Shown here: in pieces, positions 1,528 to 45,781 of the stretch | Position numbering within the stretch: the first letter of the stretch is position 1 | Layout: each line of letters starts with the position of its first letter | Source: an uncultured virus (IMG/VR IMGVR_UViG_3300044729_003472) | Lineage: Duplodnaviria > Heunggongvirae > Uroviricota > Caudoviricetes | Length of the DNA: 64,000 nucleotides | Reading direction: 5' to 3' (one strand) | Virus record (IMG/VR): IMGVR_UViG_3300044729_003472 | The notes under the pieces: generated by a model | Database searches by the model: none | Told to the model about the DNA's origin: nothing | The model's input: the letters and a program-made list of their open reading frames with translations, nothing else | Made by a program: the position numbers and the translations under genes

Positions 1528-1532
1528 AAGTA
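1525..1532 (+). promoter_or_regulatory. Putative T4-type late promoter variant (CATAAGTA), 5 nt before ATG 1538
   Basis: One mismatch to the TAAATA core seen before many genes here; same spacing to ATG; no Shine-Dalgarno. Confidence 0.5.
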
Positions 1533-1537
1533 TCGCT

Positions 1538-3668: not shown

Positions 3669-3677
3669 GGACCATCA

Positions 3678-8638: not shown

Positions 8639-9441
8639 ACAGTTTCCTGAAGTATTTGCCACACCGTACCATTTCGCATTTCGTCAACACGAAACTGTCC
8701 GTAGGCCAGGTGACTGGCCCACTGAGTCAGTAAATCTGCGTCAGGGTAGAAAGGTGTTTCAATCCGGGCGAGATCCTGCAAAGCCACTGGTGCGGCAGCA
8801 TTGGCCGGAGCCAACACAAACGCCGGTATCCCATTGAAAATAGCTTCAGTGGCGGCTACACTGTTAAAAGTTACCAAGGCAAACACATCTTGTTCTACCA
8901 AGGCCTGCTGCAGAGTATTGACATGAGTACGCTGTTTGCGCTGAGAAGCACGTTCACGTACCACTATGGGTCTGTCAGTGTACATAGCTATCTGTTGTTT
9001 GGTGTCTGCTATCCACTGGTCACGATCTATGCCGTAAAATTTACAAGGTTTTTCATCCGGAGCAGCAATCATTATGCTGCGGCCCTGGCGACGCCATGGT
9101 GCAAATTTTTTGTAAGAGAAATAAGTATGCCAACGATGTTCGGATCTTGCAATCAAGTCATGATGTTGTAGATTGTTTTTGACTATTCTATGCCATAGCT
9201 TCCAACCATGAGGGTTGTGAGCTGTGATTTCGTTGCCAAAATATCCTGTGTCAACATAATAGAACGTTCTTCCGTCGTTCCAACAACGTTGCATGATCTT
9301 GTGCTTGAGTATGCCACGCAACACTATGGGTTCTAAACTGTCTTCATAGACAAAATCCTGTGTGGCAGTGGGCTTGCGGCCCATGCTGGCTGCTAGTGTG
9401 TTGATATAAGTGTCCTGACCATCTTTGCTGAGAAATATCAT
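8635..9441 (-). CDS. KpsS/KpsC-like GT-B protein, paralog 4
   Basis: YYVDTGYFG, FAPWRRQGRSIMIAAP, DRPIVVR, ALVTFNSVAATEAIFNGIPAF, HLAYGQF; start moved to 9441. Confidence 0.55.
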   Translation of the reverse strand: MIFLSKDGQDTYINTLAASMGRKPTATQDFVYEDSLEPIVLRGILKHKIMQRCWNDGRTFYYVDTGYFGNEITAHNPHGWKLWHRIVKNNLQHHDLIARSEHRWHTYFSYKKFAPWRRQGRSIMIAAPDEKPCKFYGIDRDQWIADTKQQIAMYTDRPIVVRERASQRKQRTHVNTLQQALVEQDVFALVTFNSVAATEAIFNGIPAFVLAPANAAAPVALQDLARIETPFYPDADLLTQWASHLAYGQFRVDEMRNGTVWQILQETV

Positions 9442-10121
9442 TTCATGTGCTGTTGACAATATTCGGTATAGATGCGCTCTCTATGCCATTCTTCCGATTG
9501 TGGTGTGTCGGCGAACTCGTGAAAACACGGTGTACCCAGTGTATAGTGCAGCAGTTTTGCATCTGGATTGGCTCCGTATTCATCTGGTAACCAATTCCAT
9601 TCTGGCGCTAGCTCACCAATGCGATCATCTTCCAGCCATGAGAATCTATGCAGGAAACTGCCTGTGGATCGTTGTACAAATTCTGGAGTGAGTTTGCGAT
9701 TGGGATAGGTGCTGCAATTCCAAAGTATCACACTGCTCCAGTTCTTTCTTGGATAATCTTCGTTCACACTGCCAAGGTATTTTTCTCGGCGTTTGGTTTT
9801 ATAGTCGTGTTTGACCACCATGACATCCTTGCTCATGCTCTGCATATCCCAAAGCTCGGCTATGTCACCACGCACAATCATGTCACCATCAATAAAAATT
9901 GCCCAACCTTGCCAGCCCATGAGATAGGGCACCAAGAATCTTGTGTAGATAAAATGATTGCTGCCGTCTGTGTGCGTTTCTGTGTAGTCTCGAAACAGGT
10001 TCAATGCTACAGGAACAATGGCCACAGGAACGGAACTGTTGCGTATGATACTGTTGACGCAGGTATGATACGCAATGGCTTCTCTTGGGTCATAGCCTAC
10101 AAATATTGGAATTGGTTTCAT
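9438..10121 (-). CDS. Glycosyltransferase (GT8-like, GT-A fold)
   Basis: IFVGYDPRE, FIYTRFLVPYL, IFIDGDM (DxD), YPRKNWSSV, EWNWL, LLHYTLGTP. Confidence 0.8.
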   Translation of the reverse strand: MKPIPIFVGYDPREAIAYHTCVNSIIRNSSVPVAIVPVALNLFRDYTETHTDGSNHFIYTRFLVPYLMGWQGWAIFIDGDMIVRGDIAELWDMQSMSKDVMVVKHDYKTKRREKYLGSVNEDYPRKNWSSVILWNCSTYPNRKLTPEFVQRSTGSFLHRFSWLEDDRIGELAPEWNWLPDEYGANPDAKLLHYTLGTPCFHEFADTPQSEEWHRERIYTEYCQQHMK

Positions 10122-10549
10122 TTTTTACAAACTGATAATATGTATCTGCCGTGTCGATGATGTTTAACACTGCTGTAGAACTTATGCAACAGTGTGTCAA
10201 TGGATGACTCAGTGTATGCTCGACGCCATTCCTTTTTGATCTTGACTGGCAAAGTCAAGATCACACAATTGTCAGCAGCCCGAACCGCATTGTCCAAGGC
10301 CTGATCAGGATTTTCTAAATACTCCAACACTCCTAATACAAGAGCAAGATCAAATTTTTGTTGAAAATCCAGTGGCGTAGAAATGTCAGCTATAATGTCT
10401 GCTGAATACACAATATCAACACCAAGATATTGTGACGGACGGACGTGCTCAAGCACTTCACAGTTACCGCATCCAAAATCAATTATGCTTATATTGTCAG
10501 GAATATAAGTTTTAACAAAACTCCAACGATCACTCCAGGGATTGGCCAT
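10118..10549 (-). CDS. Class I SAM-dependent methyltransferase
   Basis: IIDFGCG, YLGVD, FDLALVLGVLEYL. Confidence 0.75.
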   Translation of the reverse strand: MANPWSDRWSFVKTYIPDNISIIDFGCGNCEVLEHVRPSQYLGVDIVYSADIIADISTPLDFQQKFDLALVLGVLEYLENPDQALDNAVRAADNCVILTLPVKIKKEWRRAYTESSIDTLLHKFYSSVKHHRHGRYILSVCKK

Positions 10550-10555
10550 AATGGG

Positions 10556-11311
10556 TCATCGGCGTTCTATGTCATTTTCTATACAGTTGTCACCAAACTG
10601 TATTTCAATCAGTTTCAATGGCTGATTAGTTTCGTTGCACAGTTGATGCCATTCATTGCGATTGATCCAGCAGTGCTGATGCACCACAAGTTTGCATTTG
10701 GGCTCTATGTCAGTGGCACGATTGAGGGTGTACACCGTGGCTTCGCCTTCGGCCACGAACCAAAACTCTGCTCGCTGATCATGACGTTGCATGCTGAGAT
10801 GTTGTCCCGGCTCCACTGTGAGTTCTTTGAGTTTGGTTTCTGAACCAACTTCATGTAACACTCTATAATAGCCCCAGGTGCGATCAGTGCGCGGACTCTT
10901 CCAGTCCTGAAGAATCCAACTGCTACTGTTGGCTTTGTCTTCTCCGCCTACTCCAAACACAAACTCCACATCATCAAATACCATTTCAGGAATATTGTTG
11001 GCAGTTCTATCGCCGCCGTTGGCAAACACAATCTGATAGGCTGGATATCTTTCACGCACACGTTGGATGGCAGCCTTGGAGCTGCCATCACTGTCGTCAA
11101 AATCTATCACCCAGTCTACACCTTGCATGGCTGACAGCACTGCACCGCGTTCAGACCAGGGCATGAAAGGACGACCTTTTTTGCGTGTCAACCAATCATC
11201 ACTGTTGAGCCCAACTACCAGAATATCACCTAGAGCGCGAGCAGCCTGTAGGTATCGCACATGGCCAGAATGAATGGGGTCAAATCCCCCGGTAACAATC
11301 ACTATTTTCAT
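10556..11311 (-). CDS. Cytidylyltransferase-family nucleotidyltransferase fused to a mannose-6-phosphate-isomerase-type cupin
   Basis: TGGFDPIHSGH, GLNSD, FANGGDR, NSSS in N-domain; RTWGYYRVL, LSMQRHDQRAEFWFVAEG, WHQL, IEIQFG in C-domain. Confidence 0.85.
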   Translation of the reverse strand: MKIVIVTGGFDPIHSGHVRYLQAARALGDILVVGLNSDDWLTRKKGRPFMPWSERGAVLSAMQGVDWVIDFDDSDGSSKAAIQRVRERYPAYQIVFANGGDRTANNIPEMVFDDVEFVFGVGGEDKANSSSWILQDWKSPRTDRTWGYYRVLHEVGSETKLKELTVEPGQHLSMQRHDQRAEFWFVAEGEATVYTLNRATDIEPKCKLVVHQHCWINRNEWHQLCNETNQPLKLIEIQFGDNCIENDIERR

Positions 11312-11316
11312 GTTGA

Positions 11317-11324
11317 TATTTATA
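11317..11324 (-). promoter_or_regulatory. T4-type late promoter TATAAATA, 5 nt before ATG 11311
   Basis: Exact T4 late consensus heading the minus-strand glycan operon. Confidence 0.75.
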
Positions 11325-11340
11325 GACGTATATTTCTACG

Positions 11341-11880
11341 CTAAAAACATTTTTTTAGCATATCATAATTTTTGTCTGGGCTCACAAACCATACATTGTC
11401 TGGCCCAACTTCAAAATTAGGAAAACGTTCGGACACTGCTTGATGAACTGCAGGAAAGTTGATATCGTGTCCTATGAACCATCCTGATGATTTGAGCTTG
11501 GGATTCCAAGCATCTATATCGCGAACTACAGATTTATAACTGTGTCCAGCATCAATAAAATAAAAATCAAGACTGTGATCAGGAACATTGCATGACACAA
11601 TCCAACTTGTGCCTGGCAAAACTTTCAATCGTTCGCCGTAACGGTTTGCAACTGCGCTGTTGTAAAATTGTGAAATGTCTTTGTCGGCTGCCCACATTGT
11701 GAGAGCAGGATTTTGATCCAGCAGATAAAAACTGGTTCTGCCTGTGCGCACACCTATCTCTGCTCCCTGTGTCCAGCCAAAATGTTTGACCAAATCATTG
11801 ATAAACATTTCTCTGCGATTGTGACCACCAACACTGTTGTATGTTTTAGGCACATACAATAATTGTTTGCCTGGCTTCAT
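11341..11880 (-). CDS. Class I SAM-dependent methyltransferase (Methyltransf_24-like)
   Basis: GAEIGVRTG, LDFYFIDAGHSY, GWFIGHD; start moved to 11880 (overlaps uvsY stop). Confidence 0.8.
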   Translation of the reverse strand: MKPGKQLLYVPKTYNSVGGHNRREMFINDLVKHFGWTQGAEIGVRTGRTSFYLLDQNPALTMWAADKDISQFYNSAVANRYGERLKVLPGTSWIVSCNVPDHSLDFYFIDAGHSYKSVVRDIDAWNPKLKSSGWFIGHDINFPAVHQAVSERFPNFEVGPDNVWFVSPDKNYDMLKKCF

Positions 11881-12329
11881 AGTGTGACGTCTTCCATGCC
11901 GGCTGTGCGCAGTCTCACAATGTGACCCATTTGCCACTGTTTGCTGTCAAGACCTTTCAACACGCCTAACCATTTGTTGCGAATCAGTGCAACTTCGTTG
12001 ATAATGGTTTCCATGTCAATGACTTCGTCCTCGCCATCCACATACTTTTCAGCATCTCGAGCGCTGAGAGCTCGAGCATAGGCTTCAAGATATTTTTGAA
12101 AGTGAGTACGGCGAATCTTGCGCAGTCTGATGTTGAGGTATTCAAGCACTGCTTCAATTTCCTGCAGTTGATTGAATCTCTGTTCGGTGATGCCTGGCAG
12201 CTCTTTGATACGATGTTCCAGAACGCCGGAGATCTTGCAGTCGCGTTTGGCCTCCTGTAATTCACGCTCATAGTGAGCGATGAAATCAGGAATATATGAT
12301 AAATCTTGAACTATTCGGCTATACCACAT
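11877..12329 (-). CDS. uvsY: Recombination mediator UvsY-like
   Basis: Helical 150 aa with KYLEAY.RAL.ARDAEKYVDGE and GLDSKQWQMGHIVRLRTAGMED; near uvsX. Confidence 0.8.
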   Translation of the reverse strand: MWYSRIVQDLSYIPDFIAHYERELQEAKRDCKISGVLEHRIKELPGITEQRFNQLQEIEAVLEYLNIRLRKIRRTHFQKYLEAYARALSARDAEKYVDGEDEVIDMETIINEVALIRNKWLGVLKGLDSKQWQMGHIVRLRTAGMEDVTL

Positions 12330-13518
12330 GGTCCAGCCATTTTACAAAACTTTCAGGGAATATGTCAAGTCTCAACTGTCTTCTACGAGCAAACTCCTTG
12401 ACGTAGTTTTGACAATTTTGCTTTTGGACTGGAGTGGGTTCGATCATGATAGATTGTAGAATTAAGTTTTTTGCCTCAGGCGGTAATTGATCCACTGAGT
12501 CCAAAATGATCTGCTTGCTTTGATCATCCATGACATGCAGCGCCAAATAGTCAGGGTCTGTACAGGACGAAAAAGCCGCAGGCACCATGCCAGCCCAGTC
12601 AATGAATTTTTTCAAACCAAAAACTGTGACATTGCTGAGTACACTGTTGAAACTGAAGCTGATACGGCGTTGCTCTATGGCCTCGATGTTTTGTTCAAAA
12701 CGTTTCCAAGAGTTGCCTGCGCGATTGAACTCATATAAGTTGTCGCAGTTTTCGGCACTGACCACTAGACTGACGTTGGGATACATTGACACTGTGTCAA
12801 GATCGCGCTGCAACCGCTTGTTGTCAACTCCAAGGCCTGTCCACACAGTGACAGGAATGGCAAAAGGCATTTGAGCCAAAAGATCCGCAAGATCGTTGTA
12901 CAAAAATGGTTCTCCGCCTGATATCATGATACCACACAGTTTGCCACTGTGTACCAAAGTGCCAATTTCTTTTATCAACAAGCGACGATTGGCAGTGTCA
13001 AGATCGCGTTGGCTAACATGCAGTCGCACACGATCGCGATCATTCAGAATCAGTCTATCATCACGACCTTGCACAGTGTCATAGTCACCGTGTTGTTGTA
13101 CTTCTCTAATCCAGGCTGTGCTATAGTGTTTGCAACAGTAACTACAGGTCATGTTGCAGTCTTTGCCCACCATGATGTTGAGAATCTCAGGATCACTGTG
13201 TAGCTCAGTGTGTGTTACTTTATCACTGTTCATGGTCAGTCGACGACTGGCCACGCCCTGTGATTCTGGTATCCAACATGTTCCGTTACAACTGGCCACT
13301 TGCAGTCCATTGAGCATGGCTGCTCGTTCAGCCAACAATTCAGGTGTGTTAAAAAGTTTTCCTGAATTGCTGCGTAACCAATCAAAGTTCACACGCTGTG
13401 GAGCAGCTGAACAGCAACTCTGCAGTTGACTTTTGTCAAGATCTACACTGAGCCACCAAAATTTTTGACTGCAATAGAATTTTGGGTCTACGTCACTCGT
13501 CCCAATCGGGTTCGTCAT
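12319..13518 (-). CDS. Radical SAM protein with N-terminal twitch/SPASM-like domain
   Basis: CNMTCSYC, SGGEPFL; N-terminal C..CC..CxxxC; start moved to 13518. Confidence 0.85.
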   Translation of the reverse strand: MTNPIGTSDVDPKFYCSQKFWWLSVDLDKSQLQSCCSAAPQRVNFDWLRSNSGKLFNTPELLAERAAMLNGLQVASCNGTCWIPESQGVASRRLTMNSDKVTHTELHSDPEILNIMVGKDCNMTCSYCCKHYSTAWIREVQQHGDYDTVQGRDDRLILNDRDRVRLHVSQRDLDTANRRLLIKEIGTLVHSGKLCGIMISGGEPFLYNDLADLLAQMPFAIPVTVWTGLGVDNKRLQRDLDTVSMYPNVSLVVSAENCDNLYEFNRAGNSWKRFEQNIEAIEQRRISFSFNSVLSNVTVFGLKKFIDWAGMVPAAFSSCTDPDYLALHVMDDQSKQIILDSVDQLPPEAKNLILQSIMIEPTPVQKQNCQNYVKEFARRRQLRLDIFPESFVKWLDHVV

Positions 13519-13729
13519 CGTATTCTTCTTCGTCTTCCTGTTGATCAAGATACGCAGCTAAAGCTCGTTTGATGTCAGCATCGCCTTTGAAAGCGTCACG
13601 AATGTCATCTGGGTCACAGTCATTGTCAATCATGGTGCTGACCACTATTTCTGCTGCTTCGGACCGATCCACTGCTGGAATTAAGTGTTTTAGTTCATCC
13701 CAAAGATCTGTTACCAAAACGTCAATCAT
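13493..13729 (-). CDS. Small acidic hypothetical protein
   Basis: Coupled to the uvsX stop, GGAGG RBS, acidic C-terminus. Confidence 0.65.
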   Translation of the reverse strand: MIDVLVTDLWDELKHLIPAVDRSEAAEIVVSTMIDNDCDPDDIRDAFKGDADIKRALAAYLDQQEDEEEYDDEPDWDE

Positions 13730-14784
13730 TACGCCTCCTCTGTGTCTGGTGTTACTGTGTGGTCTTTGATGTTGGCAAAGTCTGCCATTAATTTATCAAG
13801 GCAACCGTCTTCGTTGCTTTCCCAGGCCTTGCGGAACTGTTTGATAACTTCGCCATCTGTGGTAGTAAATGCCAGACGATTACCATCTTTCTTGAGCAGG
13901 CCTTTTTTCTCAGCCAAGTCAACAAGGCCACTGTAGGGATTCATGCCTGTTTCATAGGGAATCTTGACCTGCACACCTTCAAAGGGCTTGGCATAACGAG
14001 TTTTCATGACCTTGCAGGCACTACGAATACCCATGACATCTGAAATCTTGTTGCCATCTTCGTCCTCTTTGAGCTTGAGTTTCTTCATGGCCACCACAAT
14101 AGAGCTGGCATAGATAAAACCTTGGCCGCCTGAGATCTTGTCATCAGGATCAAACATGTCTTGACTTGCGTAAGTGTGATTGGTACACACCAGGCCCACA
14201 TTGTAGCTACCAAACATGTTGACACAGTTACGAACCAGAGCTGTCAGGGCTTTGGGTTTGCGACCTAGATCGCCTTTGAGATCACCCGAGTCAAACTGAT
14301 TGATGTCTGTGGGTGTCAGCAGCATGCCCAGGCTGTCAATCACAAACAGAACCTTGGGGCGTTCGCCGTCGGGCAAGGCCTTGTATTCTGCCATGAATGT
14401 GCTGATGGTTTTGGCCACATCGTCAATCATGGCCATGCTGAGTTTGAGCAGTTTGCTTTCGTCTGTGCTTACGCCTAGTGCATGCAACCAGGCTTCATCA
14501 AGTGCGTTTTCACTGTCAACCAAAACCACATAGATTCCTTGCTCTTGTGCATTCTTGATGATATTGCCGCTGCAGATATAGCTCTTGCCTGCACCTGATT
14601 CTCCAGCAAACACTGTGACTTTGCCCAGGGGTACTCCGCGGTTGAAGTCTCCGGAAATTAGATAGTTCAGTGCATAGTTGCCGGTAGAGATCCAGTCAGT
14701 GGGATCGTTAAAGCCAATTGATAGTCCATCAATGCTTTTGGTAATTTCTTTTCTAAATTTGCTTACGTCAAAGGGTTTAGCCAT
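13729..14784 (-). CDS. uvsX: RecA-like recombinase UvsX
   Basis: Walker A GESGAGKS, DSENALD, FVIDSLG, NHTY, SGGQG; start moved to ATG 14784. Confidence 0.95.
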   Translation of the reverse strand: MAKPFDVSKFRKEITKSIDGLSIGFNDPTDWISTGNYALNYLISGDFNRGVPLGKVTVFAGESGAGKSYICSGNIIKNAQEQGIYVVLVDSENALDEAWLHALGVSTDESKLLKLSMAMIDDVAKTISTFMAEYKALPDGERPKVLFVIDSLGMLLTPTDINQFDSGDLKGDLGRKPKALTALVRNCVNMFGSYNVGLVCTNHTYASQDMFDPDDKISGGQGFIYASSIVVAMKKLKLKEDEDGNKISDVMGIRSACKVMKTRYAKPFEGVQVKIPYETGMNPYSGLVDLAEKKGLLKKDGNRLAFTTTDGEVIKQFRKAWESNEDGCLDKLMADFANIKDHTVTPDTEEA

Positions 14785-15703
14785 GTTTGTCTGCCTCAAT
14801 AAAATTTAAAATACGTTCAAAATAAATTTGATGCTGCCTGGGTCCTGGGTGTGTTCCATCTTGTGCATAATCAACAAAACCTGCAGTTGAATTTTTTATC
14901 TCATCAACCAAGTCTATAAATCTTGGATACTGTTTCAGCAGTGCCGACATCCAGTTTATGTCCAATAGGTTCACTAGATAAAGTGTGACACCCAGTTTGT
15001 TGCAGAAGTTAATTACCTGCTGTACACTACGCAGGCAAAATAAGGTCTGTGTTTCGCTTTCAAAGTAGTCAATGTTCCAATACCTACGATCGCGATCCAG
15101 TCCAGTATAGGTGTTGACAGTTTCACACTGCATTTGCCAGTCTTGAGCATAGTCGACTCTACCAACATTGGTAAGTCCCCAGATCACAATATCGCCGGGC
15201 CGCAGATCTGCGGTCATGATTTGATCCGCACTCCACCAAACACTGGTGCCACCGCGAGCAAGATTGATCGACGACATGTCCAGAGCCAGTGCCAACCGGT
15301 TGCGCCATTTCTCATGGAGTTCAACATCCAGAGCTTCGGTCATGCTACATCCTGCTGTCCACAACACCGGTGAATCAACATGCCGCACAGATTCACACTC
15401 AAGAGCAGGGCACTGCCAGTCCACTGCAACGCCGCGACGACTCAGTGCATTGAACAGTCGGCCATAGGCAGCAAAGTTATCGTTATTGTGTTTGTCAAAG
15501 TCAAAGTTGACCAATTGCACATCACGTGCTGCCTGCACTGCTGATTCAATGTTGTTGTAGCCAAGGTCCTCCACTGTGGTTTTGAAATTCAACACAGTGC
15601 TGGACGCTAGCATGGCCGCAAGATTTCCTGCTGACAACCATTGAGCATCATTATCATGCCAGGCATGATATTGGTGACTGATGTATAGAGTGTCAATGGC
15701 CAT
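14777..15703 (-). CDS. SGNH/GDSL hydrolase-fold protein
   Basis: AGCSMT, NLARGGTS, DGTHPG (DxxH); start moved to 15703. Confidence 0.6.
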   Translation of the reverse strand: MAIDTLYISHQYHAWHDNDAQWLSAGNLAAMLASSTVLNFKTTVEDLGYNNIESAVQAARDVQLVNFDFDKHNNDNFAAYGRLFNALSRRGVAVDWQCPALECESVRHVDSPVLWTAGCSMTEALDVELHEKWRNRLALALDMSSINLARGGTSVWWSADQIMTADLRPGDIVIWGLTNVGRVDYAQDWQMQCETVNTYTGLDRDRRYWNIDYFESETQTLFCLRSVQQVINFCNKLGVTLYLVNLLDINWMSALLKQYPRFIDLVDEIKNSTAGFVDYAQDGTHPGPRQHQIYFERILNFIEADKHG

Positions 15704-16826
15704 ACAACACCGGAAACACTGCCTGGCTGTTGCATCCACGACGTTGATCCAAGATGGCCAACTGTTTAAGACTGTGTGCAAAATTTTTGGTCACTGGAGT
15801 TTGCAGATATCTCAAAAGATTTTGGTAACTGTTTTCCAACAAGAAACCTGGATTGTCCTCAATGCGTCGCTGTAATTCTTTCACAACAGATTCTAACACA
15901 CTGTCAGGCAAATGTCTAATGTTTAGATGATCTGGCTCCAATAATGCACCAATCACAAATGCATTGGCATGAAAGCCTTGGCAACGTAACCAATCAACAC
16001 AGTCAAATATTGACAGTGGGTTCAGTAAAAAATGCAACATGTTGAAAGTGATGCGGTGTTCCAGTTGTTGAATGTGTTTGAGATTGGTAACAAAATCATT
16101 CCAACTTCCTCCCCAACGAATGTATTCAAACTCATCGTTCATGGATTCTACACTGATGGTCCAATGTACATTTTTGAATTCGCACACTCGTTCAAACACT
16201 TGGGTATCCACCCGACTGAGATTGGTATTGATTCTTATGTTGACATCCGGATTCACTGCTGCCAACAGTTCTAAGTTTTCCTTCATCAACAGTGGTTCAC
16301 CGCCGGCCAAATAAACATGCTTGAGATTTTTGGCCTGATCCAAGATCCACTGTTTGAAATTTTGTTGTTGTTGATCACTGGGGCGGGTTGGCCAAATATC
16401 CAGTTCACTGGCCCAGCGACTGCTGTATTCTGGACTGCAATACACGCAGGCAAAATTGCATAGATTGCTCCAGCGTATGTCAACAGTGTGTAGTTGATGT
16501 TGACCGGGTGTGTACAATTTGGGATTGACCTGTTTTAGTTCGCGAATATAAAAAACTCTGTCGCTAATTATGTTGAACCCGCGAGCATCAGCTTCAAGGT
16601 CTTTACAGGGTTGACAACTTGATACGGCTTGACCATTTACAATTTTGTTCTGACGGTCAAGATTTTCACCTGTGGTCAACAACTGCTCAATGTCATGATT
16701 GGCAATGTTGCCCACAGGTTCACTGCTGCGTATGCAGTTTTTGACAGTGCCGTCATGATTGTACATCACACCAGCCCAAGGCATGGGGCAGAAGTGTGGA
16801 TTGGTCAACATGTCCTTAGGTGTCAT
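15693..16826 (-). CDS. Radical SAM protein with N-terminal twitch/SPASM-like domain
   Basis: CNFACVYC, AGGEPLL, NTNL, YIRWG; N-terminal CPMPW..GTVKNC..CQPC. Confidence 0.9.
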   Translation of the reverse strand: MTPKDMLTNPHFCPMPWAGVMYNHDGTVKNCIRSSEPVGNIANHDIEQLLTTGENLDRQNKIVNGQAVSSCQPCKDLEADARGFNIISDRVFYIRELKQVNPKLYTPGQHQLHTVDIRWSNLCNFACVYCSPEYSSRWASELDIWPTRPSDQQQQNFKQWILDQAKNLKHVYLAGGEPLLMKENLELLAAVNPDVNIRINTNLSRVDTQVFERVCEFKNVHWTISVESMNDEFEYIRWGGSWNDFVTNLKHIQQLEHRITFNMLHFLLNPLSIFDCVDWLRCQGFHANAFVIGALLEPDHLNIRHLPDSVLESVVKELQRRIEDNPGFLLENSYQNLLRYLQTPVTKNFAHSLKQLAILDQRRGCNSQAVFPVLYGH

Positions 16827-17361
16827 AACTAGGTCCAAGGCTTATGTCATACACCTGCAGCGAAGGATCAGTGTCGTACAAAATGGCCATCAAGGTACGT
16901 GTCCACAATTCAAGATCAGCCGAGGGTGGCACTGTTTTTTCCGGAGTGGTTGCAATATCTCCTGGACGCACTAGGTAGATTTTCAATGTGGGATCAATCA
17001 GTCTCAACTGCCGCACAGACTCTTCCAGGGCAACTTTCTGTACTCGATACTGAGCCATGTCATACCCAGGCATCACGCTCACTGGATCCTGTGCCATCAT
17101 GGTAGATATTACCACGATAGATTTGCCAGTGTTTTGCCAACGTTGTGCCACATTCCAAAGCAGTTGTGTCTGGGCGAATCCGCTTTGAGCATTGTTCACA
17201 AACACATCACAGTCGGCCACGGCATTGGTAATTTTTTCTGTGAGATGGATATTTTGGCCAGTTCTGCGACTCAGCCCCATGACCTCGTGACCGCGCTGTT
17301 GATATTCGCGAGCCAAGGCTTGGCCTATGCCATTGGTGTGTCCGGTTATGGCAATCTTCAT
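16816..17361 (-). CDS. Short-chain dehydrogenase/reductase
   Basis: ITGHTNGIG, VFVNNA, YRVQK (YxxxK), RPG. Confidence 0.8.
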   Translation of the reverse strand: MKIAITGHTNGIGQALAREYQQRGHEVMGLSRRTGQNIHLTEKITNAVADCDVFVNNAQSGFAQTQLLWNVAQRWQNTGKSIVVISTMMAQDPVSVMPGYDMAQYRVQKVALEESVRQLRLIDPTLKIYLVRPGDIATTPEKTVPPSADLELWTRTLMAILYDTDPSLQVYDISLGPSYDT

Positions 17362-17939
17362 TGCAGCAACTCCACGGGCTCACGGAAAAAAGTAAAGCTG
17401 GCCACAATTCTGGGCACACCCACAGGATCAACCATCTCCACACTATGAGCACGGCCACTGTTGAACACTATGGGCCAAGGCATGTCTAAAAGTTCGTCGC
17501 ACAAAGTGATTTGATCTTGCGGTATGCCTGAAAGATCATGTACCAAATTACCAAACTGATTGGTGTGTTGTGGGCATTCTTGCAGCACACGAGGTTCAAT
17601 GTGATACCAACGATTGGCCCAACCCACTGTGTTTAGCACAGGAAAATTGATTTTGGCCACCACCGGTGCTTCGTCAATGTGCAAGGGCAGCTGATCATTG
17701 TTTCTGATCACAGTGATCGCACTGTGCCTTGGCATCAGGCTCAGGCTCTTGAACCACAAACCCAATGCAGGCACATGTTGCAACAGTGATCTTGTATCTA
17801 CAAAATTCCAACCAAGATCACCCGTGGTCAACACCGTGGTTTGATTCATCACAAAATCCAAAATACCTTGTGATATTTCTGTTTGTTGATCACAGTGCAG
17901 TCTAGCAAAAGATTTCACTATAATAGTCCTTGTGGTCAA
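17358..17939 (-). CDS. 2OG-Fe(II) oxygenase-like protein
   Basis: LHID (HxD) ... FNSGRAHSV ... PRIVASF; start uncertain. Confidence 0.55.
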   Translation of the reverse strand: MTTRTIIVKSFARLHCDQQTEISQGILDFVMNQTTVLTTGDLGWNFVDTRSLLQHVPALGLWFKSLSLMPRHSAITVIRNNDQLPLHIDEAPVVAKINFPVLNTVGWANRWYHIEPRVLQECPQHTNQFGNLVHDLSGIPQDQITLCDELLDMPWPIVFNSGRAHSVEMVDPVGVPRIVASFTFFREPVELLQ

Positions 17940-18891
17940 TGTTTCTCAGTTGATCTTGCTGTTGCAAAAATCTGTCAAGTTCTTGAGAGTTATCTCTGTC
18001 CACCGCAATCAGTGGCAACAGTGCCTTGCTTTGGCTGTGTGACAGACTCTGTTTGGCAGCCAAAGTAAATCTATTGCGGTAACGCACACTCAACACATCC
18101 GGTGTGTGCAGTAAAGCATAGCTGTGATTGCCTTGTACATGTTCCATGTATTCAAAAATTCTGTCCATGTCCATGACATTGAGCGCATTTACCGTGGTCC
18201 AATGATTTAGCTTGATTCCGGGCATGGATCGATACACTGATAGATTCTGTTCAAAACGTGTCCAGGCTATGGGCCAACGCACGTAGTCATGCACACGACC
18301 AATACCATCAAAACTCACTGTGACTGTTACATCCACACCACTGGCAGCTATTGATTCTAGTTCGTTGATGATCAAACCACAATTGGTATTGACTCTCACG
18401 CTGGTCACACTGGGTGGCAAATTTTGCAACAGTCTGCGATAGTTTGGACTTGCACTGGGTTCGCCGCCGTTGATATCAAGATGAACGATTCTATTCAAAG
18501 GCAATTGCCAAAATTTATTGCTGTTGTCAATCATGACAAAATTTTTGCCATGCAGGCTACCAATTTTGGTACTGAGTTCTTGACTGCAGAACTGACATGC
18601 ACTGTTGCAAACATTGTCTAGCACACCACCAACCACAAGATAATCTGGTTGGGTCTGTTGTTGATGAAAACGTATGGCATGCACACGAATGCTGTCATTG
18701 CCCAGGCTTTCTGTTTCCCTACAGCGTTGACATTCTTCGGGCCACAACTTTTGTTTGATGTTGTACAACCATTCACTGTTGGACATTTCTGTGAGACTGT
18801 CAAACTCCGGAGCGCCCACCATGTGGCCGCAGCGGCTCACAGTGCCGTTGGGATTGAATCTCACAAAGTGATCAAGTCTTGGGCACCACAT
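17902..18891 (-). CDS. Radical SAM protein with N-terminal twitch/SPASM-like domain
   Basis: CNSACQFC, NGGEP, NTN, VSFDG, YVRWP; N-terminal CPR..GTVSRC..CQRC. Confidence 0.9.
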   Translation of the reverse strand: MWCPRLDHFVRFNPNGTVSRCGHMVGAPEFDSLTEMSNSEWLYNIKQKLWPEECQRCRETESLGNDSIRVHAIRFHQQQTQPDYLVVGGVLDNVCNSACQFCSQELSTKIGSLHGKNFVMIDNSNKFWQLPLNRIVHLDINGGEPSASPNYRRLLQNLPPSVTSVRVNTNCGLIINELESIAASGVDVTVTVSFDGIGRVHDYVRWPIAWTRFEQNLSVYRSMPGIKLNHWTTVNALNVMDMDRIFEYMEHVQGNHSYALLHTPDVLSVRYRNRFTLAAKQSLSHSQSKALLPLIAVDRDNSQELDRFLQQQDQLRNIDHKDYYSEIFC

Positions 18892-19540
18892 CAACGAGAT
18901 TTATCAATTGTTTACTGCGTTCAAACACCAGATGATATAGTTCTGAGTGGTTGTGTACTTTTTCTATCAGCTGTCCAAAAGTCATGCACTGATTGACATG
19001 ATCAAACACTATTTGATCCAGGAACATATAGAGTTCAAGGCGCTGCCAATCAAAATCTTGAATACGATTGGCCAGCCAGGCTGTGATAGGTTGTACTCCA
19101 GCATCACTGTTGAGATCAGTCAACTCACTGATCTTGTGCATGGGCTCAAACTGCAACAGTTGATTGCTGCCACCAAAGCTGGCAAGATTCATCAACCAAA
19201 AAAATTGTGGAGCATAGTGTCTGTTGAGAAACAGATAGTTGTCTACAAAATAAAGAATGGTATTGACATCTAGATCAGGATCCTTGCTCAACAGATGTTG
19301 TATGTAGGTGTTGACACCACTGTAAAATCTTTCGCGTGGGTCTCTCACAAACACCGTGATGGGCGCGGCAATGTTGGCTATGTCGTGATTGGTCACAGTG
19401 TTCCAACCACGGTCGGGCATGGTTTCATACAGGCTGCTGCGTCCACATTTGAATATGGGGTACACATAGCTCGAACCAGGTTCAATCTCAATCACCTCAC
19501 AGTGATTGGGAAAAATAGTTTTGGTTATTTCATCAAGCAT
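18872..19540 (-). CDS. Sulfotransferase-family-2-like protein
   Basis: IFKCGRSSL (PSB-loop-like), VFVRDPRERFYSG (3'-PB-like), HYAPQ. Confidence 0.55.
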   Translation of the reverse strand: MLDEITKTIFPNHCEVIEIEPGSSYVYPIFKCGRSSLYETMPDRGWNTVTNHDIANIAAPITVFVRDPRERFYSGVNTYIQHLLSKDPDLDVNTILYFVDNYLFLNRHYAPQFFWLMNLASFGGSNQLLQFEPMHKISELTDLNSDAGVQPITAWLANRIQDFDWQRLELYMFLDQIVFDHVNQCMTFGQLIEKVHNHSELYHLVFERSKQLINLVDVVPKT

Positions 19541-20567
19541 GTATTTCTAATTGTCTAAGCCAGTCACGGCTGAAATACCAGTCATAGTTGTGTTCTATGG
19601 TTTCCTGCTCTAGAAGATACAGATCATGCCATTCGTGTGGTTTCATTTTACTGAAACCCGACACCATTGACAGCAATTTTACCAACCTTTTCACTGGATG
19701 TGGTTCAAGATCAAAACTATAGTCAAAAATCTTTCTAAACAATTTGAATCCCCACACTGACTCTAGATGATGATGAAATTGCCAGGCACCATATGATGCC
19801 CACAGTGACTTGCAAACAATGGGATACATGGTTTTTTCTGTCACCACGGGATGATAGCTCAAGGTGTCAATTTCAGCCACCAACTGTAAAAAAGCCTTGT
19901 TGATACGCAGTGCTGCTGATTTGATCAAGGCACAGTGGTCACTGGGATCATGATATTGATCACTATAGATAGTTTGATAAAACTGCTCGGCCGCCGCATC
20001 ATCGTCAGTCATGATAAATTTCCGCAATATTCGATCATGCTCAGGCAAATCTTGCGTGAGTCGCATGATGTTGCCATCTAGACCTTGCGCGGTATATCTA
20101 AAATTCTTGGTACTTGTGGCAGGATCAAACCAGCCCCATTTCCACATGGCTGCGGTGAGAAACTGTCGACTTTCCCGATTACCGCCCACCAGTGTCATTG
20201 CAAAAGTTTCCCATGATTTGTCAGTGGGCACATCGTGTGCATCCAAGAGGTTTTCATTGAACTTCATGGCACGTTCCGGACTGACCAAGTCTACTCTAAA
20301 ATCAATGTTGGGATAGCGTTGACGCACAGTGTCATTGAACACATAGTAACTGTACAGTGTCAGGGGTCTGCCCAAATCCTGTAGTTGTTGTATGTATTCA
20401 TTGCCACCGTTGATGTCAATGAAGCCTATGGAATCACTGTGATAAACAGTGTTGACATCATCAGGCACCTCAAGTGGATCCCATTCAAGATCACGCACTT
20501 GTTCTTTGCCAGCGTTGATAGCATGTTGACTCCAACTGGGAGGTTTGGTGTAAATCGCCTTGCTCAT
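19533..20567 (-). CDS. Hypothetical protein, possible GT10-like glycosyltransferase
   Basis: LVAE..VVTEKTMYPI..GFKLF..FDYSFD; paralog of 40557..41600; start moved out of the hairpin to ATG 20567. Confidence 0.45.
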   Translation of the reverse strand: MSKAIYTKPPSWSQHAINAGKEQVRDLEWDPLEVPDDVNTVYHSDSIGFIDINGGNEYIQQLQDLGRPLTLYSYYVFNDTVRQRYPNIDFRVDLVSPERAMKFNENLLDAHDVPTDKSWETFAMTLVGGNRESRQFLTAAMWKWGWFDPATSTKNFRYTAQGLDGNIMRLTQDLPEHDRILRKFIMTDDDAAAEQFYQTIYSDQYHDPSDHCALIKSAALRINKAFLQLVAEIDTLSYHPVVTEKTMYPIVCKSLWASYGAWQFHHHLESVWGFKLFRKIFDYSFDLEPHPVKRLVKLLSMVSGFSKMKPHEWHDLYLLEQETIEHNYDWYFSRDWLRQLEIHA

Positions 20568-20575
20568 AAAATGAC

Positions 20576-20603
20576 ACAGGCGAGACATTGCTGCCTCGCC
20601 TGT
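20576..20603 (-). terminator. GC-rich stem-loop downstream of gp32 (leaky terminator or stability element)
   Basis: ACAGGCGAGGCA-GCAA-TGTCTCGCCTGT, 12-bp stem with one G-U pair and a GNRA loop; weak U tract. Confidence 0.6.
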
Positions 20604-20610
20604 TAGTGAT

Positions 20611-21618
20611 TTACTGCTTTTGTTGTCTAGCGCGGATCATGGCCAGGATGTCTTCGGCCTTTTGAGTTCCAGCTGGTTTGGCCACTGGTGCCGAAGCCAC
20701 TGCAGGCTCGTCTTCGTCCTCGGCCACAGGTGCCGGTGCTGGCTTGGCTGCCGGAGTCACCACCTTGAGTGCAGGTGCTGGAGTGTCCTCATCAACTTCG
20801 GCTGCGGTGTTTGCAGCAGTGCCGGCCGGTGCTTGCACCCCCGCAGGACGGAAGTATTGACCCCAACGCTCTACATCATAGGGCTGACCGTCAACGCTGG
20901 CTTCGAACATTTCTTTGATAACACGCAGCTCTACGTCTGTGGGCTTCTTGGGCAGGAATGTGCTCAAGTCATAGAGGCCATGTGCTTCAATTGCTTCAAG
21001 TTCTTCGGTCTGCAAGCCAGACTCTTTGCGAGCCCATTTGCTGGTGTTGTAGTCAGCATAGCCGCCTTTGGAGGTCTTGGCAATGCGGAAATCCAGACCA
21101 CGCTGCATGTCAGTTGGCAGTTCTTCCAGTTCAGGATCCATCAAGGCCGACTTGATGATGGTAAACAGTTGCGGTCCAATAATGAACTTGCGAATAGGAT
21201 TGTCCGGAGTCTTGTCATCGGCAATGGGATTTTCGCGCACAAAGCCTTGAAAGATATAGCTGCGTTTCTTCCAATACTTGCGACCCATTTCTTCTAGGCT
21301 CTTGTCTTTGAACCAAGTACGCACTTCTGCCAAGATAGGGCAAGCTTCGTTCCACATTTCCATGCAGGGCACTTGCACCATGACTTGTTTGGATTCCATT
21401 TCGCCCTTGACACCATTGAAGGGCAAGCGAATCATTGCTCGCTCAACCCAGAAAAAAGTGTTTTTGCTGTTGCCATCGGGCAGGAACCTGATCAAGGCGC
21501 TTTGGCCTTCTTCCATGTTCCAGTGTGGGTAAATTGATTTGTCTCCGCCTTGGGAGTTGTTTGAACCTTTGCTTTCTGCTGCCTGTAGTCTTGCTCGAAT
21601 TTCTGCTAAAGATGCCAT
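20611..21618 (-). CDS. Single-stranded DNA-binding protein (T4 gp32-like)
   Basis: IRFLPD, CPI, YWKKRSY, DFRIAKTSKGGYADY..SKW, flexible Ala/Pro/acidic tail; AAGGAG RBS. Confidence 0.9.
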   Translation of the reverse strand: MASLAEIRARLQAAESKGSNNSQGGDKSIYPHWNMEEGQSALIRFLPDGNSKNTFFWVERAMIRLPFNGVKGEMESKQVMVQVPCMEMWNEACPILAEVRTWFKDKSLEEMGRKYWKKRSYIFQGFVRENPIADDKTPDNPIRKFIIGPQLFTIIKSALMDPELEELPTDMQRGLDFRIAKTSKGGYADYNTSKWARKESGLQTEELEAIEAHGLYDLSTFLPKKPTDVELRVIKEMFEASVDGQPYDVERWGQYFRPAGVQAPAGTAANTAAEVDEDTPAPALKVVTPAAKPAPAPVAEDEDEPAVASAPVAKPAGTQKAEDILAMIRARQQKQ

Positions 21619-21708: not shown

Positions 21709-21737
21709 AGTATACGTGTTCTGCAAAGTTGTGTCAA
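21709..21737 (-). promoter_or_regulatory. Sigma70-type promoter for gp32 (TTGACA-17-TATACT)
   Basis: -35 at 21732-21737, -10 at 21709-21714, 17-bp spacer; an additional TAAATA lies at 21741-21746. Confidence 0.8.
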
Positions 21738-24172: not shown

Positions 24173-24179
24173 GATTCTA

Positions 24180-24187
24180 TATTTAGC
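24180..24187 (-). promoter_or_regulatory. Late promoter GCTAAATA, 7 nt before ATG 24172
   Basis: TAAATA core that includes the terminase TAA stop. Confidence 0.6.
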
Positions 24188-45705: not shown

Positions 45706-45729
45706 GGCATTCTCCAGGGTCAACACAGT

Positions 45730-45758: not shown

Positions 45759-45766
45759 GCACGGGC

Positions 45767-45774: not shown

Positions 45775-45781
45775 CAAAACT

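Follow-up and report, generated by a model that had tools for sequence, protein, structure and literature searches.

The window, that is the whole 64,000-nt stretch of DNA that was analysed, stems from a lake-water jumbo phage, uncultured and kin to the Rak2/CBB/GAP32 group. The 13 open reading frames (ORFs) that the original prediction had assigned to a single tailoring cluster were all found on the minus strand where they had been placed, and all coordinates below refer to that strand unless stated otherwise. Profile HMMs confirmed the three predicted core genes, namely those of the gp32-type ssDNA-binding protein (20611..21618; phrog_1192, E 7e-65), the UvsX recombinase (13729..14799; phrog_97, E 1e-68) and the UvsY recombination mediator (11877..12329; phrog_231, E 5.5e-15). 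The gp32 protein showed a median identity of 72% in relatives, and UvsX was 61-68% identical to its counterparts in Rak2-like jumbo phages. In the cultured relatives Vibrio phage 2.275.O and Pectobacterium phage CBB the genes gp32, uvsX and uvsY are contiguous with nothing inserted, and this bare core supports the prediction that uncharacterised tailoring enzymes lie inside the module. Cargo hotspots are the junctions of the conserved backbone of terminase, gp32, uvsX and uvsY. The small acidic ORF (78 aa; 13493..13729), which had been counted as a cluster member, is a conserved neighbour of uvsX that occurs in nearly all relatives whether a radical SAM gene is present or absent, and is not cassette-specific. 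A dNMP kinase gene is also encoded within the window.

The genes are tightly packed, as had been noted. From ORF351 to the methyltransferase gene the longest ORFs overlap by 1-89 nt at 11 of the 12 junctions, the sole gap being 22 nt between gp32 and ORF351, and overlaps of 1-26 nt persist with homologue-supported starts. This co-directional run extends to 6013, past the originally delimited region of 12319..20567. A sigma-70-like site (TTGACA-17-TATACT, 21709..21737; 11/12 consensus matches only) does lie upstream of gp32, but the claim that it is the single promoter was not supported because a second site with an equal score (11/12) precedes uvsY at 12368-12339. Since 40 promoter-like sites were found against 25.8 ± 5.2 in shuffled sequences, individual sites carry little weight. 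In the interval between the stop codon of gp32 and the start of ORF351 we detected a 12-bp hairpin (20576..20603), seven of whose pairs are G-C, with a T-rich tail behind it. Eight small contigs from the RNA libraries of one study matched the window at an identity of at least 99%. One of them (20558-20892) spans the hairpin and bridges gp32 and ORF351, another bridges ORF351 and ORF222, and one extends to 21728, at the gp32 promoter-like site. These contigs give a weak hint that the region is expressed.

Composition and distribution of the cassette

Two sets of loci from relatives were compared, one anchored on ORF222 (76 loci, drawn from the 80 best among 295 matches and falling into 49 clusters at 90% identity) and one anchored on uvsX (62 loci containing both gp32 and uvsX). 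In the first set the gene of radical SAM protein rSAM-A followed ORF222 in all 72 testable loci, and the mini-SDR and rSAM-B genes were present in 68/69 and 52/53 loci, respectively; gp32 lay immediately upstream of ORF222 in 65 of 67 loci and uvsX downstream of the cassette in 39 of 39. In the second set the whole cassette was observed in 11 loci and a partial one in none; gp32 abutted uvsX in 16. The sulfotransferase, rSAM-A, SDR and rSAM-B genes thus constitute a self-contained cassette, inherited either whole or not at all, and a 2OG oxygenase (13/69 ORF222-anchored loci) is an add-on in a minority of relatives, the window included. The cassette genes overlap or abut and include no cassette-specific small ORF. 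Many close relatives lack the cassette although their UvsX is equally similar to that of the window (∼82-91% identity). The predicted co-occurrence therefore held for this core set, with or without the oxygenase, but the 13 genes do not make up one multi-step pathway; ORF351, ORF334, the downstream genes and the radical SAM gene in the uvsX-uvsY interval are distributed independently among relatives.

The first cassette gene, ORF222 (18872..19540), had been described as sulfotransferase-like. No Pfam sulfotransferase model scored it, even at E 0.5, and its identification as a PAPS-type sulfotransferase-like protein comes from its fold and invariant motifs. The AF2 model (pLDDT 85.7) had as its best BFVD match an uncultured-phage protein annotated as 'Sulfotransferase family' (E 2.8e-15, TM 0.77), and the best 11 entries in a VIA search of the PDB were all sulfotransferases (Z 6.9-3.8). 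The nearest solved folds were those of carbohydrate sulfotransferases, the heparan sulfate 3-O- (Z 6.9), 2-O- (Z 5.9) and N-sulfotransferases (NDST, Z 5.5), which are Pfam Sulfotransfer_2-like; Cpz8, the sulfotransferase of the caprazamycin pathway, was a weaker match (Z 3.5). The invariant residues are K31, G33, S36 and R66...S74, and these Lys-Gly-Ser and Arg...Ser positions coincide with what we take to be the PAPS-binding motifs. ORF222 differs from carbohydrate and annotated viral sulfotransferases in its length of just 222 aa, in the missing Pfam score and in its constant pairing with a radical SAM gene. Family searches found no PAPS-synthesis gene in the window and none in a 98%-complete relative, so that sulfation would depend on the host.

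Both the SDR and the oxygenase predictions were borne out. The mini-SDR (16816..17361), an NAD(P)H oxidoreductase of 181 aa, scored 28.4 bits with adh_short against a cut-off of 26.6, and its TGxxxGIG, NNAx and YxxxK motifs are legible in the translation. The optional ORF193 (17358..17939), whose probable start is a GTG at 17918 giving 186 aa, was not scored by any Pfam model and was recognised as a 2OG-Fe(II) oxygenase from its fold and its invariant residues H80-x-D82, H158 and R170. Its AF2 model (pLDDT 95.7) has a DSBH fold, and Foldseek matched it to FIH and JMJD7 (E 2e-4, probability 1.0); PHD2 and AspH were also similar in structure searches. The best VIA match was Cpz10 (7v4m, Z 12.2), followed by AlkB (Z 11) and protein hydroxylases (Z 10.5). 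Cpz10 is a nucleoside-antibiotic hydroxylase of caprazamycin biosynthesis (PMC9814697).

Two neighbours of the cassette are independent cargo. ORF351 (19533..20588), between gp32 and the cassette, had been called GT-like, and this assignment found no support, since 0/12 members matched any glycosyltransferase family; ORF351 had no Pfam, PHROGs or NCBIfam family and no PDB sequence match. In 9 of the 62 uvsX-anchored loci the cassette is absent and an ORF351 homologue is the sole cargo between gp32 and uvsX. ORF334 (14777..15781; probable start 15703) was present in 6/39 ORF222-anchored loci and is possibly an SGNH-type hydrolase, as proposed. The basis of that proposal is four invariant motif blocks (G-C-S, G..S, G-L-T-N and D..H) and weak Lipase_GDSL matches in two of four members.

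Radical SAM paralogues with an N-terminal twitch domain

The three radical SAM genes predicted in the region were recovered with the NCBIfam model NF033640 (N_Twi_rSAM; 398 positions, cut-off 170 bits), together with a fourth outside it. The cut-off was exceeded by rSAM-B (15693..16838, probable start 16826; 244.8 bits) and rSAM-D (25762..26904; 202.9 bits), whereas rSAM-A (17902..18894; 131 bits, model positions 11-381) and rSAM-C (12319..13548; 147.5 bits) fell short. The alignment covers most of the model for all four, and all four retain four N-terminal cysteines, CX3CX2C and GGEP, as do the bacterial members; rSAM-A retains every cluster cysteine, and in rSAM-B the invariant ones are C17, C35, C75, C78 and C127, C131, C134. 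Judged by profile and motifs, the four paralogues belong to NF033640 and have a predicted N-terminal twitch domain. An identity as NrdG, QueE or MoaA was rejected (best scores 28-31 bits against cut-offs of 131-284). More than 3005 homologues of rSAM-B were found at E<1e-10. Our literature search found no paper describing NF033640 and no characterised member or assigned reaction; as the family is a named sequence model only, membership gives no function.

The rSAM-C gene is a lone radical SAM gene in the uvsX-uvsY slot, which a radical SAM gene occupies in 29/73 loci with no association to the cassette (2x2 table 7/7/18/28). The slot of rSAM-D, directly upstream of the terminase gene, is filled likewise in several relatives, and rSAM-D, like rSAM-C, is cargo separate from the cassette. 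The 98%-complete relative (340-kb genome) has 12 NF033640 matches, 10 of them above the cut-off. Among Bdellovibrionota, members above the cut-off were present in 110/401 genomes, and the operon of one metagenome-assembled genome encodes NeuB, an unknown protein, a CMP-type cytidylyltransferase and two N_Twi proteins. Six further bacterial regions were hand-picked from the top matches; in five of them the family adjoins GT2, GT1, PMT_2, ABC-2 exporter, NTP-transferase or carbamoyltransferase genes, and one of these five is the operon GT2, GT2, N_Twi, N_Twi. A carbamoyltransferase gene also adjoins the tandem N_Twi arrays in 3/3 phage records that have such arrays.

Characterised SPASM/twitch radical SAM enzymes are mostly peptide maturases, and the only PDB sequences matched by the rSAM-B profile were SkfB (E 0.0045) and one unnamed radical SAM protein. 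These matches, the weak NCBIfam matches of the radical SAM proteins to WgkB, PapB and YhhB and the resemblance of ORF193 to FIH, JMJD7, PHD2 and AspH would fit a cassette that acts, with the N-twitch enzymes, on a phage or host protein, such as a virion protein, or on a RiPP-like peptide, by cross-linking or epimerisation, hydroxylation and sulfation. An Asp_Arg_Hydrox gene and a nitroreductase-family gene in one bacterial array, and a conserved 33-aa ORF within the tandem array of one relative, point the same way. We nevertheless consider a protein or peptide substrate rather unlikely. The tightly packed cassette offers no small ORF of its own, the 78-aa acidic ORF occurs regardless of it, and the 33-aa ORF was matched neither in the window nor at the gp32-uvsX loci. 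Moreover, carbohydrate sulfotransferases (Z 6.9) match the fold of ORF222 better than tyrosylprotein sulfotransferase does (Z 3.0), and the bacterial relatives lie within glycosyltransferase and NeuB operons.

Glycan genes and the substrate of the cassette

Directly downstream of uvsY, outside the originally delimited region, we found a ∼12-kb island of glycan genes. Its minus-strand part (6013..11937) comprises eight genes in the order Methyltransf_24, HldE-type nucleotidyltransferase-cupin fusion, methyltransferase, GT8, ORF274, polysaccharide pyruvyl transferase, ORF317 and ORF277; the first of these (11341-11937, E 6.7e-13) is the methyltransferase that had been predicted after uvsY. The remainder (676..6029) has genes on both strands, with ORF294 on the minus strand and, on the plus strand, genes for a weak GT2 match, GT25, GT7C-like and Methyltransf_24 proteins, a PseB-like UDP-GlcNAc 4,6-dehydratase (TIGR03589, 322.8 bits, under its cut-off of 407.75) and an RmlD-like reductase (rmlD, 80 bits). 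Homologues of island genes follow uvsY in 23 of 29 relatives' loci. The cassette was present without a glycan gene after uvsY in locus L014 and in 6/29 loci, and the island is cargo separate from the cassette.

The island, the bacterial glycan neighbourhoods, the carbohydrate-sulfotransferase folds of ORF222 and the intact catalytic residues argue for sugar or glycan editing plus sulfation, a function to which we give about an even chance. Against it stand the minimal cassette, which itself encodes neither a glycosyltransferase nor a nucleotidyltransferase, the loci that have the cassette but no glycan gene after uvsY, the dependence on host PAPS, the missing Pfam scores of ORF222 and ORF193, the nearest structures of ORF193, none of which is a sugar enzyme, the hand-picking of the bacterial regions and the mostly peptide-acting known SPASM/twitch enzymes, with SkfB and the unnamed protein as PDB matches of rSAM-B.

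The minimal cassette also lacks a transferase to a polymer, as would be expected if it made or altered a diffusible metabolite, for example a nucleoside-like compound carrying a sulfate, or else a cofactor or the head group of a lipid. The best structural match of ORF193 (Z 12.2) is Cpz10 of caprazamycin biosynthesis, and ORF222 matched, more weakly, the fold of that pathway's Cpz8 (Z 3.5). Such a product appears quite unlikely, however, since these fold matches are generic, the cassette is not accompanied by genes that would build a scaffold (NRPS, PKS, aminoglycoside or nucleoside core), and the neighbourhood of glycan genes favours polymer-bound sugars. Carbamoyltransferases like those beside the N_Twi arrays act on antibiotics too, which would suit a small molecule.

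As to the substrate, the findings on balance favour a sugar or glycan over DNA. Modification of phage DNA bases or of the dNTP pool, evading host restriction, is very improbable, even though the cassette sits between gp32 and uvsX in a replication and recombination operon, AlkB-family proteins are among the closest folds of ORF193 (Z ∼11), the window encodes a dNMP kinase and phage thymidine hypermodification pathways employ radical SAM enzymes. The phage clusters for thymidine and cytosine hypermodification are likewise multi-enzyme tailoring cargo near replication genes, some with radical SAM enzymes. In contrast to them, the 98%-complete cassette-bearing relative had no ThyA-family pyrimidine hydroxymethylase (0/5 records), and no DNA-glycosylase-like, aGPT-Pplase-like or DNA glycosyltransferase family matched in the window. 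The oxygenase is optional (13/69 loci), the bacterial context of NF033640 is one of glycan genes, and, because the cassette is patchy among close relatives, a role in DNA modification would make close relatives differ in DNA chemistry.

Sugar editing has precedents in AprD4/AprD3 of apramycin biosynthesis, a radical SAM diol-dehydratase paired with an NADPH-dependent SDR reductase, and in BtrN, a twitch radical SAM sugar dehydrogenase. AprD4/AprD3 share with the cassette the pairing of a radical SAM enzyme and a short-chain reductase, which in their case acts on a sugar ring, and in both systems a twitch-type domain carries an auxiliary [4Fe-4S] cluster like the one predicted for the cassette enzymes. 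That domain is C-terminal in them and N-terminal in the cassette, which in addition is phage-borne and has two radical SAM enzymes per SDR and a sulfotransferase; the rSAM-B profile showed no similarity to AprD4/AprD3 or BtrN among PDB sequences. Viral glycan sets are known from the LPS/glycan genes of cyanophages, the glycosylation machinery of chloroviruses and mimiviruses and the virion glycosylation of mycobacteriophages, and they include accessory nucleotide-sugar enzymes, glycosyltransferases and methyltransferases, as does the phage of the window. We know of no such set in which the radical SAM family is expanded or in which a sulfotransferase, radical SAM enzymes and an SDR form a cassette.

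If the cassette acts on a sugar, whether a free nucleotide sugar or one already in a glycan, the CX3CX2C cluster of each radical SAM enzyme would, with SAM, remove a hydrogen atom from one of the sugar carbons, and the N-terminal four-cysteine auxiliary cluster would accept an electron, giving a keto or dehydrated intermediate. The mini-SDR would reduce the ketone, with epimerisation or deoxygenation as the net result; the oxygenase, if present, would put on a hydroxyl, and the sulfotransferase would take sulfate from host PAPS to cap a hydroxyl or an amine. A phage-specified glycan, carried by virion proteins or by the envelope of the infected cell, would be decorated with the product, and the many radical SAM paralogues per genome may diversify that glycan.

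Gene run around gp32, uvsX and uvsY

The minus strand of the window carries a run of 20 ORFs, almost without interruption, between positions 6013 and 21618. Profile searches detected in this run gp32 (20611-21618; phrog_1192, E 7e-65), uvsX (13729-14799; phrog_97, E 1e-68), uvsY (11877-12329; phrog_231, E 5.5e-15) and a gene for a Methyltransf_24 protein (11341-11937), all on the minus strand. Together with three radical SAM genes and a gene for a short-chain dehydrogenase/reductase (SDR), these matches bear out most of the gene list given in the original prediction. When the longest ORFs were taken, overlaps were found at 11 of the 12 junctions from ORF351, the gene following gp32, through the methyltransferase gene. 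Overlaps of 1-26 nt persisted with the starts supported by homologues (16826 for the radical SAM gene rSAM-B, a GTG at 17918 for the oxygenase gene ORF193 and 15703 for the cargo gene ORF334). A consensus match to a sigma-70-like site precedes gp32 (21737-21709, minus strand), an equally good one precedes uvsY (12368-12339, minus strand), and a sequence scan placed a hairpin after gp32 (20603-20576, minus strand). Promoter-like sites numbered 40 against 25.8 ± 5.2 in shuffles, a modest enrichment only. We found eight RNA contigs at an identity of at least 99%, all of them small and derived from two RNA libraries of one study. Five were placed on gp32, one of these crossing the hairpin into ORF351, two on uvsX, and one spanned ORF351 and the neighbouring ORF222. 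Most of the four-gene cassette described below had no RNA contig cover in either library; the contigs were of low depth and hence uninformative on silence. The RNA contigs are only a hint of expression, DNA carry-over being possible.

Other genes of the window include that of an 825-aa virion-protein homologue (21740-24217, minus strand; phrog_13484) with a LysM motif and, in its middle part, a long low-complexity stretch rich in Gly, Pro, Ala and Thr; the C-terminal half of this protein diverges strongly between relatives. A dNMP kinase gene (39893-40549, minus strand; phrog_139, E 6e-53) and a NUDIX hydrolase gene (48442-48927, plus strand) both lie amid tail/head genes.

The UvsX protein is 61-68% identical to that of the Rak2-like jumbo phages Vibrio phage 2.275.O, CBB, GAP32, Atu_ph07 and Phosso. 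The gene order in 2.275.O and CBB is terminase, structural protein, gp32, UvsX and UvsY, with no insert. A megablast search of cultured phages with the 8.3-kb region gave no match, and tblastn of rSAM-B against cultured phages returned only radical SAMs of 21-24% identity, from KVP40-like vibriophages and RsoM2USA. The phage is common: near-identical DNA was present in 18 lake-water DNA runs from 17 studies, with eight flagged as the possible source sample.

A linked four-gene cassette and separate cargo genes

The original prediction had treated 13 genes as one radical SAM tailoring pathway. We compared gene neighbourhoods in IMG/VR using two anchors, and the resulting locus counts rest on tblastn labels, fragmentary contigs and top-ranked subsets. 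For the first scan the anchor was ORF222 (18872-19540, minus strand), which encodes a sulfotransferase-like protein. The best 80 of 295 matches comprised 54 distinct sequences in 49 clusters at 90% identity, and the counts cover the 76 loci with less than 98% identity to ORF222 of the window, with testable loci as denominators. Directly upstream of the ORF222 homologue was gp32 (65/67 loci), and next to it came the radical SAM gene rSAM-A (72/72), followed by the SDR gene (68/69) and rSAM-B (52/53), with uvsX after the cassette in 39 of 39 loci. The 2OG oxygenase gene (13/69), ORF334 (6/39) and a second SDR gene (4/53) were found in a minority of loci.

With UvsX as its anchor, the second scan was blind to cargo; it used the best 80 of at least 600 matches, at 80-92% identity. 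Eighteen of these had no gp32 on the locus, and the other 62 were classified by what lies between gp32 and uvsX. The whole cassette was present in 11 of the 62 loci and a partial cassette in none; 16 had nothing in this interval (a gap of at most 80 nt), nine had an ORF351 homologue without the cassette, and 26 carried further inserts of 283-2288 nt that resemble no part of the window. The interval between uvsX and uvsY contained a radical SAM gene in 29 of 73 loci, and a small acidic ORF or a short gap only in 43 of 73. Presence of the cassette showed no association with that of the uvsX-uvsY radical SAM (2x2 table, 7/7/18/28). The 78-aa acidic ORF was considered as a precursor peptide and rejected, since it occurs irrespective of the cassette.

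In the UvsX tree 52 of 75 branches had SH-aLRT support of at least 80, and the 15 cassette carriers among 66 labelled rows required 15 changes, which is not fewer than the mean of 13.7 obtained with shuffled labels. The median identity to the window was 41-58% for the cassette proteins, versus 86% for UvsX and 72% for gp32. Cargo is exchanged at the gene junctions within a strongly conserved recombination module, and its presence is unclustered on the tree of the neighbouring gene. The predicted co-occurrence of the genes in relatives stands for the four cassette genes, which were linked in both scans, but not for ORF351, ORF334 and rSAM-C, the radical SAM gene between uvsX and uvsY, which vary separately. 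Instead of a single 13-gene pathway, the relatives show a conserved backbone with cargo hotspots, in which four genes form one closely linked cassette and several other, unrelated cargos consist of a single gene each.

For two of these cargos the proposed functions were also reconsidered. The ORF351 product (19533-20588, minus strand) had been called glycosyltransferase-like, and this label was not sustained: none of 12 members matched any GT family at E up to 0.5, searches of PDB sequences with the single sequence and with a profile gave chance-level rows only, and hhalign against ORF274 gave a probability under 1%. For ORF334 (14777-15781, minus strand), described as an SGNH protein, the four invariant blocks (G-C-S, G..S, G-L-T-N and D..H) fit the label, but the GDSL matches were sub-threshold only. 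Lipase_GDSL was matched in two of four members (E 0.005 and 0.48), both under the cut-off, single and profile searches of PDB sequences gave nothing usable, and hhalign against one GDSL protein returned a probability of 0.4, i.e. under 1%. The ORF334 homologue of one relative (L052, 9152-10087) has an in-frame stop codon, so that a pseudogene or an assembly error is possible.

Radical SAM enzymes and their cassette partners

The radical SAM proteins match NF033640 (N_Twi_rSAM), the NCBIfam model 'twitch domain-containing radical SAM protein', which has a curated cut-off of 170 bits for the whole-protein HMM score. On the minus strand, rSAM-B (15693-16838; 244.8 bits) and rSAM-D (25762-26904; 202.9 bits), directly upstream of the terminase large subunit gene, scored over this cut-off. 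The cassette enzyme rSAM-A (17902-18894; 131.1 bits, model positions 11-381 of 398) and rSAM-C (12319-13548; 147.5 bits, model positions 2-339 of 398) scored under it. The other paralogues of the window share 22-27% identity with rSAM-B. The place of rSAM-D upstream of the terminase is taken by an Endonuclease_NS gene in one relative (L014). Four N-terminal Cys residues, CX3CX2C and GGEP are common to the four phage paralogues and three bacterial members (alignment A5), and the four Cys and CX3CX2C are invariant in 25 rSAM-B orthologues (alignment A3). Pfam SPASM matches the radical SAM N-terminus weakly. The sequences point to an N-terminal twitch-like domain, whose cysteines would serve a putative auxiliary Fe-S cluster, ahead of a radical SAM core with CX3CX2C. 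Assignment to a housekeeping family would have counted against the original prediction, and this does not apply, because the best NCBIfam scores were far under the cut-offs (NrdG2, 28.3 vs 131; QueE, 30.6 vs 260; MoaA, 31.3 vs 284). A fifth radical SAM of 321 aa (43596-44561, minus strand) lies amid head-tail structural genes, bordered by ORFs without an assigned family (42964-43599 and 44569-45777). It falls outside the N-twitch family (NF033640, 26 bits), and its best matches, to MoaA and viperin models, are weak (about 40 bits). No paper on NF033640 or the N-terminal-twitch radical SAM family turned up in our search of open-access papers and bioRxiv, nor did that search find reports of jumbo-phage cassettes with radical SAM or sulfotransferase genes, or of the expansion of the family in Bdellovibrionota.

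The ORF222 protein matched no curated sulfotransferase model in Pfam (E up to 0.5), NCBIfam or PHROGs, and Sulfotransfer_2 was present on 15% of the members of one atlas cluster. Residues K31, G33 and S36, and R66...S74, eight residues apart, are invariant in 36 homologues; the Lys would correspond to the 5'-PSB and the Arg...Ser to the 3'-PB motif for PAPS. The AlphaFold model (pLDDT 85.7) had as its top BFVD match an uncultured-phage 'Sulfotransferase family' protein (E 2.8e-15, TM 0.77/0.84). In a Foldseek-independent scan of PDB representatives (VIA) the top 11 rows were all sulfotransferases, with a middling best Z of 6.9; those for heparan sulfate 3-O-, 2-O- and N-sulfation stood first among them (Z 6.9-5.5). 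On the modelled fold and the PAPS-motif residues, the proposed sulfotransferase-like character of ORF222 holds.

The optional ORF193 (17358-17939, minus strand) was scored by no Pfam model. All 35 sequences compared keep H80-x-D82, H158 and R170, and the model (pLDDT 95.7) was recognized by Foldseek as a double-stranded beta-helix oxygenase (probability 1.0, E 2e-4). This fold, the iron-binding HxD...H triad and a basic residue that would hold the 2OG carboxylate agree with the predicted 2OG oxygenase, and the model strongly indicates a 2OG-Fe(II) enzyme. VIA Z-scores ranged from 12.2 to 10, with Cpz10 (7v4m) at 12.2, AlkB at about 11, and PBCV-1 prolyl hydroxylase and AspH at about 10.5. Cpz10 is described in PMC9814697 as a hydroxylase of the caprazamycin pathway. 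A small-molecule product of the cassette appears improbable to us. Modification of a protein or peptide, for which there is a precedent in twitch/SPASM enzymes and which would suit the protein-hydroxylase-like fold of ORF193, is somewhat less improbable, but a cassette-linked precursor is missing: no RiPP-type precursor gene was found in the cassette, whose genes are packed without spare room and without a small ORF among them.

The SDR (16816-17361, minus strand) is unusually short (181 aa). It scored 28.4 with adh_short against a cut-off of 26.6, over residues 3-55 only, and TGxxxGIG, NNAx, a Ser and YxxxK are readable in its translation. The score above the model cut-off, the Gly-rich motif and the Ser-Tyr-Lys set mark this mini-SDR as a predicted classical short-chain dehydrogenase/reductase. 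Taken together, the four linked genes appear to encode a unit for sugar editing that ends in sulfation, a reading to which we give about an even chance. The two radical SAMs would activate C-H bonds, the NADPH-type mini-SDR would then reduce the resulting ketone, the optional oxygenase would add a hydroxyl and the sulfotransferase would use host PAPS. The scheme would have parallels in AprD4/AprD3 and BtrN; a profile search of PDB sequences found no similarity to these.

Glycan context in phages and bacteria

On the minus strand downstream of uvsY are genes for an HldE-domain-II-type nucleotidyltransferase fused to a mannose-6-phosphate-isomerase-type cupin, two methyltransferases, a GT8 protein and a polysaccharide pyruvyl transferase. 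Four paralogous ORFs without a family (676-1560, 6013-6846, 6816-7769 and 8635-9459, minus strand; 274-317 aa, 25-29% mutual identity by tblastn) also lie there; one of them gave a weak match to DUF6716 'putative glycosyltransferase' (E 0.01), and their homologues recur after uvsY in many relatives. The opposite strand of this glycan island carries GT2-like, GT25 and GT7C-like genes, another Methyltransf_24 gene, an RmlD-like reductase gene and one for a PseB-like UDP-GlcNAc 4,6-dehydratase (322.8 bits, under the equivalog cut-off). The island genes directly downstream of uvsY fall outside the region (12319-20567) to which the tailoring cluster had been assigned. Island homologues follow uvsY in 23 of 29 relatives, and some cassette-bearing relatives (L014) pass straight to core helicase genes.

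A 98%-complete, 340-kb cassette-bearing relative (G404) has 12 matches to NF033640, of which 10 score over the cut-off, and two further partial genomes contain 12 and 13. Five tandem N-twitch radical SAM genes lie beside a carbamoyltransferase gene in this relative (G404:C1:139107-146604), and like arrays were observed in two other genome records (G405 and G406). A 33-aa basic ORF lies within the array/carbamoyltransferase locus (L196, G404:C1:128000-147999, at 9854-9955, minus strand; L186 at 17881-17979), with 76% identity between the two phage records and no counterpart found in the window. A 'Legionellales' MAG (G003), which had likewise seemed rich in the family, was rejected as an independent bacterial example, since terminase, gp32 and uvsX genes are present on its contigs, which also share synteny with the phage array. 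Its contigs L018 and L186 are jumbo-phage DNA in a bacterial bin, through mis-binning or a host link.

Cassette-bearing virus records, including the 98%-complete one, yielded no NeuB or APS kinase. The ThyA-family dUMP/dCMP hydroxymethylase (PF00303) was found in none of five related virus records, again including the 98%-complete one, and in 10 of 14 control genomes. This lack of a hydroxymethylase and the patchy distribution of the cassette among close relatives speak against a modification of DNA or nucleotides, to which the location of the cassette and the AlkB-like oxygenase fold would point, and we regard such a role as very improbable.

In agreement with a carbohydrate substrate, as in the sugar-editing reading, would be the bacterial neighbourhoods of the family. 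NF033640 was detected in 110 of 401 Bdellovibrionota genomes versus 0 of 14 control genomes. One bacterial MAG has an operon of NeuB, a function-unassigned gene, a CMP-type cytidylyltransferase and two N_Twi genes, with an Asp/Arg hydroxylase, a nitroreductase and a carbamoyltransferase nearby. Six further bacterial regions were hand-picked from top matches on long contigs, and their counts stand without a base rate for glycan genes. Four of them contained GT1 or GT2 genes, two of these also PMT_2; among the four, one has the operon GT2, GT2, N_Twi, N_Twi and another an ABC-2 exporter. A fifth region contained a nucleotidyltransferase. The cassette partners were not found in the bacterial N_Twi arrays, which gave no tblastn match to ORF222, the SDR or ORF193.

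A wider proposal, which we put forward only tentatively and consider rather doubtful, is that the N-twitch family is a new carbohydrate C-H-activating class. Its members would form a combinatorial toolkit for a hypermodified, sulfated glycan on the virion or the infected cell, with cassettes swapped by recombination at recombination-operon hotspots as an arms-race device. The parts of such a toolkit would be the 12 family matches (10 over the cut-off) of the one near-complete genome, together with sulfo-, carbamoyl-, methyl- and pyruvyl-transferases. No description of sulfation or radical chemistry on phage glycans was found in open-access papers and bioRxiv.

If the sugar-editing reading is true, the cassette would offer a tractable entry into a seemingly unstudied radical SAM family, since the all-or-none occurrence of its four genes, on about 3.2 kb, shows which enzymes belong in joint expression. 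The family occurs in 110 of the 401 Bdellovibrionota genomes sampled, and metagenomic homologues of rSAM-B by itself run into the thousands. Were the toolkit proposal also true, NF033640 would gain its first function, and a sulfated glycan would for the first time be known to be made by a phage.
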